IMG/VR virus record: IMGVR_UViG_2737471855_000016
Span: 1-11,988 of that record
Direction: 5' to 3' (one strand)
DNA length: 11,988 bases
From: a virus
Taxonomy: Duplodnaviria > Heunggongvirae > Uroviricota > Caudoviricetes
The position numbers were made by a program, and so were the translations under genes. How positions within the stretch are numbered: the first letter of the stretch is position 1; each line of letters opens with the position of its first letter. Shown here in pieces: positions 1 to 6,136 of the stretch. The notes under the pieces are model-generated. The model was given only the letters and a program-made list of their open reading frames with translations. It did no database searches and was not told the DNA's origin.

Positions 1-900
1 ATGAAGCGTGAAGAAATCGCTGATCTGATGGCGTTTGTCGTCGTTGCAGAGGAGCGTAGCTTCACTCGTGCAGCAGCCCGCCTGAGCATGGCGCAGTCAG
101 CTTTAAGCCAGATAGTGCGTCGTATAGAAGAACGATTGGGATTGCGGCTTCTGACGCGAACCACGCGCAGCGTTGTTCCAACTGAAGCGGGCGAGCATCT
201 TTTGTCTGTTCTTGGCCCTATGTTGCATGACATAGATTCAGCCATGGCATCCCTGAGCGATCTGCAGAACCGCCCATCCGGGACAATACGTATTACTACT
301 GTAGAACATGCAGCAAAAACGATATTGTTACCAGCAATGCGCACATTCCTGAAATCGCATCCTGAAATTGATATTCAGCTCACCATTGATTATGGTTTGA
401 CCGATGTCGTTTCTGAACGTTTTGATGCAGGCGTCCGTCTGGGTGGGGAGATGGATAAAGATATGATCGCCATTCGAATCGGGCCAGATATACCAATGGC
501 TATTGTTGGCTCACCGGATTATTTTTCTCGCCGAAGTGTTCCAACGTCAGTGTCACAATTAATAGATCATCAGGCAATTAATTTGTATCTTCCCACATCG
601 GGTACAGCAAATCGCTGGAGATTAATACGCGGTGGACGTGAAGTTCGTGTTCGCATGGAAGGTCAGCTTTTACTGAATACGATAGACCTGATCATTGATG
701 CTGCAATTGATGGGCATGGATTGGCGTATCTACCTTATGATCAGGTTGAGCGGGCTATTAAAGAAAAAAAACTGATACGTGTTTTGGATAAATTCACACC
801 AGATTTACCCGGTTATCACCTGTACTATCCACACCGTCGACATGCTGGCTCGGCATTCTCATTATTTATAGATAGGCTGAAGTATAAAGGTGCTGTTTAG
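1..900 (+). CDS. LysR-family transcriptional regulator (host gene flanking the island)
   Basis: 299-aa ORF starting at base 1 with a typical LysR N-terminal HTH (FVVVAEERSFTRAAARLSMAQSALSQ...) and a LysR-type co-inducer domain length. GC content looks higher than in the region that follows. Confidence 0.9.
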   Translation: MKREEIADLMAFVVVAEERSFTRAAARLSMAQSALSQIVRRIEERLGLRLLTRTTRSVVPTEAGEHLLSVLGPMLHDIDSAMASLSDLQNRPSGTIRITTVEHAAKTILLPAMRTFLKSHPEIDIQLTIDYGLTDVVSERFDAGVRLGGEMDKDMIAIRIGPDIPMAIVGSPDYFSRRSVPTSVSQLIDHQAINLYLPTSGTANRWRLIRGGREVRVRMEGQLLLNTIDLIIDAAIDGHGLAYLPYDQVERAIKEKKLIRVLDKFTPDLPGYHLYYPHRRHAGSAFSLFIDRLKYKGAV

Positions 901-2796: not shown

Positions 2797-2822
2797 ACCC
2801 CGCGTGCAATGCGGGGTTTTTT
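2797..2822 (+). terminator. Rho-independent terminator after alpA
   Basis: Stem ACCCCGC / GCGGGGT with a 7-nt loop, followed by TTTTTT. Confidence 0.7.
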
Positions 2823-2937
2823 GTATGTGAGGTAAAAAAGAAATGAATAAAAATATTGCCGTGACGGGCAAGGGTGACGCACGTCATGTAAAAAAATCTG
2901 TGATTTTCGTGATCTGGTCGTTCTGCGCTTTGATAGT

Positions 2938-3420
2938 GTGAACGTTCGCGTGGTGTATCTGAACGGCGATCCGTGGTTTGTTGCAAAGGATGTCTGCGCT
3001 GCGCTGGAACTGACCAATTCGCGTACGGCGTTGCAGATGCTTGATGATGATGAAAAGGGAGTAAATTTAACTTACACCCCAGGAGGAAATCAGAATATGA
3101 GCATTATCTCTGAGTCAGGTTTCTACAAACTAATAGCCCGTAGCCGCAAAGCAACGACGCAAGGCACATTCGCCCATCGTTTCAGTAACTGGGTATTCAG
3201 AAATGTGATACCGGGTATCAGAAAAACGGGGGCTTATGGTATCCCGTGGGGTGCATTACAGGATTTTTCCCGCCGCAAAGAGCAATACCAGATAAGTGCC
3301 AGCGAGAAGGGGAGGGCGCTACAGGCATGTAAGCGCAAAAAACGTGAACTGGAGGAAGAAGAAAAAAGGCTGATACGTGAATATCAGCCTGAGTTTTACT
3401 TTGGTGAGCGTATTCAGTAA
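2938..3420 (+). CDS. Bro-N domain protein (antirepressor-type), N-terminus apparently disrupted or frameshifted
   Basis: Strong Bro-N pattern (VRVVYLNGDPWFVAKDVCAALEL...LDDDEKGV...TPGGNQNMSIISESGFYKLI...FSNWVFRNVIPGIRKTGAY). The GTG at 2938 has no SD. In-frame codons upstream (DLVVLRFDSV) still look like the first Bro-N strand but have no canonical start. See the finding at 2843-2941. Confidence 0.75.
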   Translation: MNVRVVYLNGDPWFVAKDVCAALELTNSRTALQMLDDDEKGVNLTYTPGGNQNMSIISESGFYKLIARSRKATTQGTFAHRFSNWVFRNVIPGIRKTGAYGIPWGALQDFSRRKEQYQISASEKGRALQACKRKKRELEEEEKRLIREYQPEFYFGERIQ

Positions 3421-3576
3421 CCACACGCGGTGCTGATTATACGGTACATCGTGTTAACCGAGAAGCTACCCACCAGCAAGGCAAAATCTTCTGCTAAAAA
3501 ATGACATATAGCCCGTCGTCCGGAAAGCATGAAATTTTACAAAAATGGAAAATGAAGATTTTTATTGTGCTGGTGG

Positions 3577-3609
3577 GTAAAAACAAAAAGCGCCCCGTTG
3601 CCGGAGCGC
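3577..3609 (-). terminator. Minus-strand intrinsic terminator (distal)
   Basis: On the minus strand: GCGCTCCG, GCAA loop, CGGGGCGC, then TTTTTGTTTTT. Confidence 0.55.
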
Positions 3610-3704
3610 CCTTGCGAACAATTAACCTGCTGCGAAAAAATTGGATCAGTGCAGGGGAATTATATCAACTGTGTGAAGAAGCGCCACAATTGCCGGATAA
3701 CAGG

Positions 3705-3733
3705 CAAAGAAAAGGCCACCTGTCACGGTGGCC
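3705..3733 (-). terminator. Minus-strand intrinsic terminator (proximal) after the lipoprotein ORF
   Basis: Perfect 7-bp stem GGCCACC / GGTGGCC with a 6-nt loop, followed on the minus strand by TTTTCTTTG. Confidence 0.65.
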
Positions 3734-3863
3734 CTTCAACACAAATTGCGCGTTATCCCCAACGCATGAGCATCGCCAACAATGCCATATTTGCGGCTGG
3801 TGGGCAAAGCCTGAGCGATCCTGTGATTACAGGAACTACGGCATTGTCTCGGTTAGGTAGTGC

Positions 3864-4016
3864 TCAACTTTTTTTCAACTCTACATCGCAAGCACGCCGT
3901 AATAAATCGCCCTTATCGTTTGAGCAAAGACTATTTTTCTCAAAGCATGATATTAAGAGAAAGATTGTGATAATTAAAGCAACCATCATTGGTACATGTT
4001 TTTTTAATTTTAACAT
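3864..4016 (-). CDS. Small predicted lipoprotein (50 aa), not in the ORF track
   Basis: Manual minus-strand translation gives MLKLKKHVPMMVALIITIFLLISCFEKNSLCSNDKGDLLRRACDVELKKS: basic n-region, hydrophobic h-region and an L-I-S-C lipobox. AGGAG sits 6 nt upstream of the ATG. It lies 54 nt downstream of the RHH gene ending at 4071 and is followed by two terminators. Confidence 0.5.
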   Translation of the reverse strand: MLKLKKHVPMMVALIITIFLLISCFEKNSLCSNDKGDLLRRACDVELKKS

Positions 4017-4070
4017 CTTTTACTCCTATGATTGCCGCCGCGATTCCCCACACCACGGCGCTGGTGGTTT

Positions 4071-4376
4071 TTATTCTGATTCTTTGGCCTTGCGGCGCTG
4101 TAGTTCTTCACGAGCGATGGCGATAAGTTGCCCGAGTTCTTCCGTAGCTTTAATACCAATTTTTTCCACTTGCGCCAATGCATCGAGAGAAGAAATCAGA
4201 GGATTTTCACTGCTTCCTTCTGCTTGGCGGCGGGCGATCTCCCCGCGCATGGCGGTTACTATGAATCCGGCGTTGCTTTCGCCGTCCAGTTTTACGGATT
4301 CCATGCCATCAAAAGCATCATGTGGGATACGAATTGAAATCTGTTTTGATTTGTCGTTGATAGTGTTTTTTGCCAT
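4071..4376 (-). CDS. Arc/Mnt-like ribbon-helix-helix DNA-binding protein (101 aa), paralog 1
   Basis: N-terminus KSKQISIRIPHDAFDGMESVKLDGESNAGFIVTAMRGEI matches the RHH strand-helix-helix pattern. The start is taken at the second ATG (4376), spaced 6 nt from AGGAGA; the ORF-track start at 4415 has no SD. The C-terminal tail RRKAKESE is shared with paralog 2. Confidence 0.75.
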   Translation of the reverse strand: MAKNTINDKSKQISIRIPHDAFDGMESVKLDGESNAGFIVTAMRGEIARRQAEGSSENPLISSLDALAQVEKIGIKATEELGQLIAIAREELQRRKAKESE

Positions 4377-4398
4377 GTGCATTCTCCTAAACAAAAGA

Positions 4399-4475
4399 TG
4401 TGATTCAGTATACACAAAAAAGAATCACAAAAAACACTTTACCTGTGATTCAGTTGAATTTAATTTAAATCACAC
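4399..4475. promoter_or_regulatory. Promoter/operator region of RHH paralog 1 with TGTGATTC / GAATCACA inverted repeats
   Basis: TGTGATTC at 4399-4406 and 4444-4451 with inverted partners GAATCACA at 4422-4429 and AATCACA at 4468-4474. A minus-strand -10-like TATACT is the reverse complement of 4407-4412. The -35 is not convincing. Confidence 0.5.
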
Positions 4476-4500
4476 CTCAGTAAGAGGATGTAAACGACAA

Positions 4501-4532
4501 CGCCCCGAACTGTTTGCGGCAGTAGCGGGGCG
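4501..4532 (-). terminator. Candidate minus-strand terminator/hairpin separating the two RHH units
   Basis: GC stem CGCCCCG / CGGGGCG with an 18-nt loop; on the minus strand it is followed by TTGTCGTTT, a weak U-tract. Confidence 0.35.
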
Positions 4533-4652
4533 TCTAACCAAACCATTAATTGAGGTAACGATTATGGCTATAAAAGAGCATAGCTTACTCTTTATACACA
4601 CACAAACGCCCCGGAAACGGAATAATCCGTTTCATAGTTCGGTTTTGTGCAC

Positions 4653-4880
4653 TCATCCTGGCGGTCGGTTTTTGCCGGATTTAAGCCGCCGTGGGTATTT
4701 ATCGACAAAATCTTCAAGGGCAAATTTTTCTGGTGGCACTAAGCGCGGCGCTGGTGGTGGTATTTTTGTTCTGGTTAGTTCTTCCTCAAGTCTGGCGCAG
4801 GCTTCTGACTGCCTTTGCCGGATGATTTCATCATCTTGCGTTTGCGTGTCTTGTATTGGTGATAGTGTGTTGTTGGTCAT
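4653..4880 (-). CDS. Hypothetical protein (75 aa), second gene of the RHH paralog-2 unit
   Basis: ORF with an AGGG SD-like motif 6 nt upstream, 57 nt downstream of the RHH gene at 4938-5117. Acidic N-terminus and a Pro-rich segment (PPPAPRLVPP). No family recognised. Confidence 0.55.
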   Translation of the reverse strand: MTNNTLSPIQDTQTQDDEIIRQRQSEACARLEEELTRTKIPPPAPRLVPPEKFALEDFVDKYPRRLKSGKNRPPG

Positions 4881-4937
4881 GATACTGCCCTGTAAAGCAA
4901 TGCGCCGTAGTACCTCACACCACGGCGCTGATAGTGA

Positions 4938-5117
4938 TTATTCTGATTCTTTGGTCTTGCGGCGCTGGCGGCGTTTGATCTCGCCTCGCATGGCTGTAAC
5001 GATAAATTGCGCAGTGCTCTCGCCTGTTTCTTTTACTTGCTCCATAGCCTCAACAACTTCATGCGGGGCGCGAGCCTGTAATTTCTGTGATTTGTTATTG
5101 ATATGGTCTCTTTCCAT
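4938..5117 (-). CDS. Arc/Mnt-like ribbon-helix-helix DNA-binding protein (59 aa), paralog 2; below the ORF-track size cutoff
   Basis: Manual translation gives MERDHINNKSQKLQARAPHEVVEAMEQVKETGESTAQFIVTAMRGEIKRRQRRKTKESE. From memory it is strikingly similar in pattern to P22 Arc (strand, helix A, G-x-S turn, helix B). An AAGGGA SD-like motif lies upstream. It is divergent from the replication operon. Confidence 0.7.
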   Translation of the reverse strand: MERDHINNKSQKLQARAPHEVVEAMEQVKETGESTAQFIVTAMRGEIKRRQRRKTKESE

Positions 5118-5138
5118 TTCTGGTTCCCTTTGTGATTA

Positions 5139-5217
5139 CTGGAATCCAGTATACACGAAAAAGACCAAAACAAAACGCTTGAAGTGGATTCCACTTAGTG
5201 ATTATACTGGAATCCAG
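5139..5217. promoter_or_regulatory. Divergent promoter/operator region between RHH paralog 2 and the replication operon
   Basis: Near-palindromes CTGGAATCCAG (5139-5149, 5207-5217) and GTGGATTCCAC (5185-5195). Plus-strand candidate promoter: TTGAAG (5179-5184), 18-bp spacer, TATACT (5203-5208). Minus-strand -10-like TATACT is the reverse complement of 5148-5153. Confidence 0.5.
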
Positions 5218-5313
5218 CTGAGTGTTTATCACTCAATGCAAACGAGGCTGAAAAGGATTGCCGTCCTTTCGCAGCCTCTGACCACCAACGATAGCGAAAG
5301 TATCGAGGTAGCT

Positions 5314-5517
5314 ATGAGAAATCATATCACACACCCGCAAGGGCGGGACTCACACAACCTGAATAAATACATCTGGCGTTTTATCGCCCTGAGCACGGCA
5401 CAACCGCGCGTAATCCACATCGAGGCCACCAGCGAACAGGAAGCACGCCAGCAATCCCCGGCTGGCTGCGTGATGGTATTCGCTGCCCGTATTCGTCAGG
5501 AGGTGTGCCATGCCTGA
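5314..5517 (+). CDS. Hypothetical small protein (67 aa), first gene of the replication operon
   Basis: ATG preceded by GAGGT at about 6 nt. Its stop overlaps the next start (ATGCCTGA). It shares a frame with the long spurious 3565-5517 ORF, so only this 3' segment is taken as real. Confidence 0.4.
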   Translation: MRNHITHPQGRDSHNLNKYIWRFIALSTAQPRVIHIEATSEQEARQQSPAGCVMVFAARIRQEVCHA

Positions 5518-5836: not shown

Positions 5837-6136
5837 ATGAGAACGTATTTATCTGGCTTGACTGCCAGCGGTTATGCACACCCTAAAATTGTCCCCGGCG
5901 CTATTTATCTGGATAAGAACGGTAACAGAGTAACGGTAAAAAAACTGATGTTTGACCGTGTGTATTTTATCCGTGATGGCTATTCATTTCTTAGTTCGCT
6001 GAACGTGGAGATCTTTATTTGCAGATTCCGGCGGGAAATCCCGACTTTCAGAAATAACCGTGTGTCACGTGTGGATGTGGATAAAAAACTACAGGAACTG
6101 AAAAACATGATTGCCGCGTGGAGAGAGCAGAAATGA
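5837..6136 (+). CDS. Hypothetical protein (99 aa)
   Basis: GGGGA SD-like motif upstream; its stop overlaps the primase start (ATGA at 6133-6136). Confidence 0.6.
   Translation: MRTYLSGLTASGYAHPKIVPGAIYLDKNGNRVTVKKLMFDRVYFIRDGYSFLSSLNVEIFICRFRREIPTFRNNRVSRVDVDKKLQELKNMIAAWREQK

Follow-up and report, generated by a model that had tools for sequence, protein, structure and literature searches.

The bro gene of the window, by which we mean the whole 11,988-nt stretch of DNA analysed here, carries a run of seven adenines (A7) in place of the eight (A8) of its near-identical homologs. This is very probably an ordinary frameshift allele, a pseudogene or a hypomorph, in which one A was lost from an ancestral A8 run, and the change is best read as genuine and heritable and not as a recoding device. 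The window is 100% identical to the chromosome of Escherichia coli RM10410 (NZ_CP042350.1) over all 9430 overlapping bases of the retrieved locus (L001). The frameshifted state of RM10410 bro is already annotated, since PGAP/RefSeq labels positions 6064..6641 of L001 (2843..3420 of the window) as "BRO-N domain-containing protein, frameshifted" (locus FS611_RS07665). Our result matches this flagged pseudogene at a mononucleotide run in sequence, coordinates and call, with no structural difference. PGAP also marks bro as frameshifted in E. coli 2014C-3097. What we add to the RefSeq flag is that the lesion is a change from A8 to A7, that it is real in many independent assemblies, and that it lies in the −1 slippery phase.

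Every sequence feature named in the original prediction was present when the window was read directly. The whole frameshifted Bro-N ("antirepressor") gene spans 2843..3420 on the plus strand and is the counterpart of a 579-nt, 192-aa gene in intact homologs. It has an ATG start at 2843-2845 with a Shine-Dalgarno-like GAGGT (2829..2833, plus strand) 9 nt 5′ of it, and the equivalent ATG is the PGAP start in intact orthologs, such as WP_033885573.1 (192 aa) of strain 154. From this ATG, a 32-aa ORF (MNKNIAVTGKGDARHVKKSVIFVIWSFCALIV; 2843..2941, plus strand) runs to a TGA at 2939-2941. Its residues 1-18 (MNKNIAVTGKGDARHVKK) are the authentic Bro-N N-terminus, and the remaining 14 residues are out-of-frame read-through. 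This 5′ fragment is also predicted as a gene on two Logan contigs. The 3′ fragment (2896..3420, plus strand) lies in the −1 frame and corresponds to residues 19-192 of the intact protein (ICDFRDLVVLRF...GERIQ), as judged from the sequence and the homolog alignment. In GenBank, the 3′ fragment annotated with the start ATC 2896 is a 174-aa protein (P0124), found on 4 contigs in addition to the 116 that carry the 160-aa product P0121 described below.

The downstream Bro-N frame is shut on its 5′ side by the predicted TGA at 2875..2877 (plus strand), and the earliest ATG, GTG or TTG after that stop is the GTG at 2938. This GTG opens a 160-aa ORF (2938..3420, plus strand) that holds the entire Pfam Bro-N domain and lacks residues 1-32. 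The ORF has no canonical start with a ribosome-binding site, in agreement with the original prediction: no Shine-Dalgarno-like sequence was found in the sequence upstream of the GTG, GCGCTTTGATAGTGTG. The TGA of the short ORF (2939-2941) overlaps this GTG as GTGA (2938-2941). The A7 tract at 2890..2896 (plus strand), identified as the deletion site by homolog comparison and codon phase, is read in the 2843 frame as GTA AAA AAA TCT, and the heptamer A_AAA_AAA thus stands in the X_XXY_YYZ phase of a −1 slippery site. The proposed fusion of the two frames by a −1 shift on this heptamer holds exactly. A shift after 2896 gives a 192-aa protein residue-for-residue equal to the intact homolog P0135.

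The homologs carry bro as a single contiguous ORF; the split is a derived and rare state. Near-identical copies in complete genomes (L002, L004, and L005) read GTA AAA AAA ATC (A8) and have one 192-aa ORF from the same ATG. A diverged lineage (L006 and L007) reads GTA AAA AAA TTC and also has a contiguous ORF. In the locus alignment, A7 is found in the window, L001, and L003, and A8 in L002, L004, and L005. L002 and the RM10410 locus differ in 3 alignment columns in ~2.2 kb, one of which is the missing A, indicating that the window allele is A8 minus one A. The N-terminus, whose alignment to homologous genes had been proposed as a check, is contiguous elsewhere; residues 1-33 hardly vary among 28 aligned members and are more strongly conserved than the middle of the Bro-N domain. 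There are 1752 protein homologs; of the best 120, every one has the full length of 191-194 aa and covers practically the whole query, save one contig-end fragment. Since the orthologs have one contiguous ORF, the split is real and not a chance pattern of ORFs. In most members of the family, the run is either an in-frame A7 or interrupted (VKKF, VKKV, VKNF). E. coli genes contain fewer AAAAAAA heptamers than expected, whichever the frame; a high indel rate or transcriptional slippage has been cited as a possible reason (Sharma et al. 2014, PMC4066793).

The bro N-terminal region is present in 182 of 5426 complete E. coli genomes. We tallied A7 and A8 from the record spans obtained with a 95-nt query, over the best 60 and 60 evenly spread rows of the 182 genomes. 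Among these rows, all records except RM10410 were one base longer than the query. A7 was seen in RM10410 and 2014C-3097 only, among the matches listed, and by extrapolation from these matches about 180 of the 182 genomes have a single ORF.

The A7 lesion is a real, inherited allele that has spread in natural E. coli. It is found in all three independent Logan assemblies (SRR7358010, SRR15108054, and SRR8931246; loci L009, L010, and L011), and L009 holds a 651-nt segment of the window exactly. The exact 160-aa downstream product (P0121) occurs on 116 contigs in public collections, including four separate NCBI accessions. The intact twin P0135 is found on 83 contigs, and another intact member on at least 1000. 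The same bro gene is present in many O157:H7 genomes.

The gene order around bro is pgrR, a tyrosine integrase, an AlpA-like helix-turn-helix regulator (named by PGAP), bro, leftward YlcI/YnfO genes, an Icd-like gene, DUF4222, a D5-type primase, an SSB, and a fusion of ClpP-like protease and major capsid protein. Pfam recognizes integrase domains, a D5_N/Pox_D5 primase, SSB, and CLP_protease plus Phage_capsid_4 in one 629-aa protein. In this protein (9560-11449, plus strand), a ClpP-like prohead protease (residues 41-173) is fused to a major capsid protein (residues 331-623). [quoted passage not shown] The definition and layout of cf-PICIs have been described, with EcCIEDL933 as the prototype (bioRxiv 10.1101/2022.09.08.507074). 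Likened by gene content, the window resembles EcCIEDL933 in its integrase, AlpA-like regulator, D5-type primase, SSB, and protease/capsid fusion, whose genes all point the same way. It differs in that it ends at 11988, just after the capsid gene, before the region for terminase, portal or head-tail genes. A GC-rich terminator-like hairpin followed by a T-run (2797..2826, plus strand), assigned by consensus match only, sits after the alpA-like gene and immediately before the ribosome-binding site of bro. Its stem (2797-2817) has 9 pairs, 6 of them GC, followed by TTTTTTG. With such a hairpin before bro, expression of the gene would need read-through or its own promoter; a consensus scan of the plus strand found no sigma-70-like promoter between 2500 and 3700.

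Although their int-alpA-bro modules are otherwise almost identical, the related satellites are highly mosaic from bro to icd. On the minus strand of this interval (window 4071-5117), RM10410 carries a 228-nt hypothetical gene and a pair of YlcI/YnfO-family genes of 306 and 180 nt. A single YlcI/YnfO gene without the extra hypothetical is found in L003, L004, and L007, and one YlcI/YnfO gene with a hypothetical in L002, L005, and L006. One plus-strand frame of the window is free of stops for 653 codons (3556-5517). It runs from just past bro until the Icd-like gene ends and lies antisense to three PGAP minus-strand genes (YlcI/YnfO 4071-4376, hypothetical 4653-4880, and YlcI/YnfO 4938-5117). 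The other two plus-strand frames contain 46 and 42 stops over 3421-5517, where ~30 are expected per frame, and none of 500 shuffles had an open stretch of more than 220 codons, the longest seen. An open plus-strand frame of 301-653 codons is kept in all seven related loci (L001-L007) despite the mosaicism and indels whose lengths are not divisible by three. The frame has no Pfam match, and substitutions in its first 545 nt are flat over codon positions (19/21/19), which argues that it is probably not a conserved protein. The segment just 5′ of the annotated Icd-like start at 5314 (5118-5313, plus strand) belongs to the same open frame, which scores best for codon usage among the six frames there, with a slightly positive value. 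By this score, the Icd-like gene may start further upstream than the PGAP position.

The A7 allele of 2014C-3097 sits on a different satellite backbone, which has a RepA helicase in place of the D5 primase. This satellite (L008, NZ_CP027449.1) is apparently inserted within a prophage large-terminase gene, in contrast to the position adjoining pgrR in RM10410. Terminase fragments flank it at 6380-7384 and 17429-18559, one without the C-terminus and the other without the N-terminus. The integrase of 2014C-3097 (L003) has three SNPs in common with the A8 loci L004 and L005. Across the A-run, the A7 allele of 2014C-3097 is closest to the A7 allele of RM10410, with one mismatch and no gap. The mismatch is a T>G change at 2875, found in the second A7 allele (2014C-3097/L003, L010, and L011), which leaves the amino acid unchanged in the 2843 frame (GGT to GGG). 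It turns the TGA at 2875-2877 into GGA and abolishes the closure of the Bro-N frame. The same change converts AAGGGTG to the more Shine-Dalgarno-like AAGGGGG, 13 nt 5′ of the A-run, but AAGGGG is also present in the intact alleles L006 and L007, so this change may mean nothing. Among the alleles compared across the run, the GGG variant is in no A8 allele. We considered two independent origins of A7 on account of the integrase SNPs that L003 has in common with L004 and L005, and downgraded this reading since the A7 alleles are mutual closest relatives and GGG occurs in no A8 allele. One A7 origin with later recombination upstream would be the simpler reading of these sequences.

The Pfam Bro-N family (PF02498) matches the intact homolog with 72.4 bits and the GTG ORF of the window with 73.1 bits, above the curated gathering cut-off of 25.6, over profile positions 1-96 of 96. 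The match covers residues 2-92 of the GTG ORF, and residue 2 of that ORF is residue 34 of the intact protein. The original prediction had placed the stretch DLVVLRFDSV, upstream of the GTG, in the Bro-N core. The start of PF02498 at residue 34 speaks against this, and several PHROG anti-repressor profiles, which align from residues 24-30 at their profile positions 3-10, speak for it. These alignments and the nearly invariant N-terminus indicate that the 160-aa product would lack conserved sequence. The intact protein gives a full-length match to phrog_2593 (E = 4e-85). By its PF02498 and phrog_2593 matches, it resembles the phage and satellite Bro-N/Ant-type anti-repressors (PF02498; PHROG 2593, 130, and 2899), with the difference that for this satellite-borne member the name "antirepressor" is an annotation label only. 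No defence-system match for the Bro-N protein was found in PADLOC. Searched by sequence, the PDB gave no solved homolog and nothing beyond chance matches to TonB (E = 0.1). The AlphaFold2 model of the intact protein, built on a shallow 28-sequence alignment, has a mean pLDDT of 44 and a pTM of 0.35 and is too poor for judging residues 1-33.

We propose that one A was lost from the A8 run of the satellite bro gene (GTA AAA AAA ATC, encoding V16 K17 K18 I19), most likely by replication slippage. The deletion moves codons 19-192 out of the frame set by the authentic start (2843) and into the −1 frame, so that normal translation would give a 32-aa peptide ending at the stop at 2939-2941. Loss or strong reduction of Bro-N function in the A7 allele would be expected from these frames. 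Of the inactivating indel suggested earlier, the indel is thus a genuine 1-nt deletion in an ancestral A8; the inactivation is what we infer. There is counter-evidence to a dead allele. A7 is common, with 116 contigs against 83 for the exactly matching intact P0135, and it occurs on two different satellite backbones and integration sites, with no further disabling mutation seen downstream of the run. The allele may therefore be neutral or still partly functional, and not dead.

Programmed −1 frameshifting at A7, one of the explanations offered in the original prediction, is not supported. The heptamer is in the X_XXY_YYZ zero-frame phase that such a site needs. As a stimulator, we looked for a stem-loop or pseudoknot 5-9 nt downstream of the heptamer or a Shine-Dalgarno-like sequence upstream. 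The 94 nt downstream fold with −24.7 kcal/mol, compared with −22.9 kcal/mol for shuffles (MFE z = −0.65), and the sole upstream element read from the sequence is a weak 5-nt GGUGA, 12 nt from the heptamer. The window contains no known RNA at the Rfam gathering threshold. Only two near-identical alleles show the split; every diverged homolog has a single frame. Compared with −1 frameshifting of the dnaX or IS911 type (A_AAA_AAG or A_AAA_AAA), bro is alike in the phased heptamer and in the weak Shine-Dalgarno-like element. It differs in having no downstream stem-loop or pseudoknot signal and no conservation of the two frames among homologs, and a shift in bro would only repair a mutation and would not yield a second product. 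E. coli heptamers without stimulators shift at 2.1-10 times a background of 0.055% (PMC4066793), and efficient bacterial transcriptional slippage has been reported for runs of 9 (PMC5009743). From these rates, read-through at the A7 heptamer should be well below 1%.

Residual expression at such a low level leads to the alternative that survives best, which we consider unlikely: the A7 allele is real but works at a reduced level as a leaky "pseudo-pseudogene" through slippage and/or reinitiation. The exact wild-type 192 aa would be restored by a low-level −1 ribosomal slip on A_AAA_AAA or by an extra A from RNA-polymerase slippage, and termination-reinitiation at GTGA (2938-2941) would give a 160-aa protein with the Bro-N domain. 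The phase of the heptamer, the identity of the shifted product with P0135, and the position of the Pfam domain wholly inside the GTG ORF are consistent with these routes, as are the frequency of the allele, its presence on two backbones and its freedom from secondary lesions. The weak GGUGA before the heptamer and the AAGGGGG of the second A7 allele could also favor a slip; AAGGGG in the intact L006 and L007 means that the latter is not specific to A7. Low-level compensatory frameshifting after a "savior indel" has been documented as a concept, with G-run mutants of the herpes simplex thymidine kinase as the example (PMC5009743). Judged from sequence alone, bro is alike in its one-base homopolymer indel and in that rare slippage on the same run could restore some wild-type protein, but a selective advantage of lowered expression would be hypothetical for bro. 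Several observations argue against leakiness. Unstimulated heptamers in E. coli reach at most ~0.5% (PMC4066793), downstream RNA structure is absent, and the A-run is shorter than the runs of 9 at which efficient transcriptional slippage was reported. As to reinitiation, the GTG at 2938 has no Shine-Dalgarno sequence, and its product would lack the nearly invariant N-terminus, including residues 24-32, where several of the PHROG alignments begin.

A stronger form of the same idea, that A7 has been selected as a "dimmer" which cuts a potentially costly antirepressor to well under 1% and leaves residual wild-type protein from a −1 slip, seems to us improbable to a greater degree still. If it were true, the T>G change at 2875 might boost the slip in the 2014C-3097-type allele through its AAGGGGG 13 nt upstream. 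It would also account for the similar frequencies of A7 and its intact twin and for the movement of A7 between satellite backbones.

A phase-variable contingency locus, in which the A-run would flip between A8 (ON) and A7 (OFF) at high frequency and vary antirepressor expression, had also been suggested and is very improbable. A homopolymer within the 5′ coding region, with both lengths on otherwise identical protein alleles (116 versus 83 contigs), is what such a locus would look like. Against it, the OFF state was seen in only 2 of the 182 complete genomes, among the matches listed, and the close relationship of the two A7 alleles, with GGG in no A8 allele, fits one origin and inheritance and not repeated switching. 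A long tract is not maintained in the family, where the run is in most members in-frame A7 or interrupted. A run of eight is also short for high-frequency slippage in mismatch-repair-proficient E. coli. Repeated independent changes of tract length among close relatives, which would mark a contingency locus, were not found, a weak negative given the limited sampling.

A sequencing error, the remaining suggestion of the original prediction, can hardly be credited, with the same allele in the Logan assemblies of three other SRA runs and its exact product on the 116 contigs. Loss of a single base from an 8-mer is the kind of residual error typical of the PacBio platform, and a homopolymer under-call in a PacBio-only assembly would look like the A7 of RM10410. 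However, two further A8 runs in the window (764-771 and 1830-1837) sit in intact ORFs. A paper that discusses RM10410 gives PacBio RS II P6/C4 in its methods and nowhere mentions Illumina, and credits the RM10410 genome itself to an earlier report (PMC10562709). The neighboring ycjY gene (L001 2139-3084, ~140 nt 5′ of window position 1) is annotated as frameshifted in RM10410. We considered it as a proxy for assembly error and rejected it, since the RM10410 ycjY sequence is 100% identical in many unrelated complete genomes, indicating a lineage-shared allele; it says nothing against the assembly. Given the independent assemblies with A7, it would be wrong to set the bro lesion aside as a homopolymer error of PacBio sequencing.

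The preferred reading, a plain and real one-base deletion behind what appeared to be a candidate for slippery-site recoding, is of value mainly for annotation hygiene. Automated pipelines give the product of the A7 allele as an "antirepressor" of 160 or 174 aa; each of these is a truncated frameshift artefact. If Bro-N acts in satellite induction or phage interference, the carriers of A7 would be natural knock-down strains.
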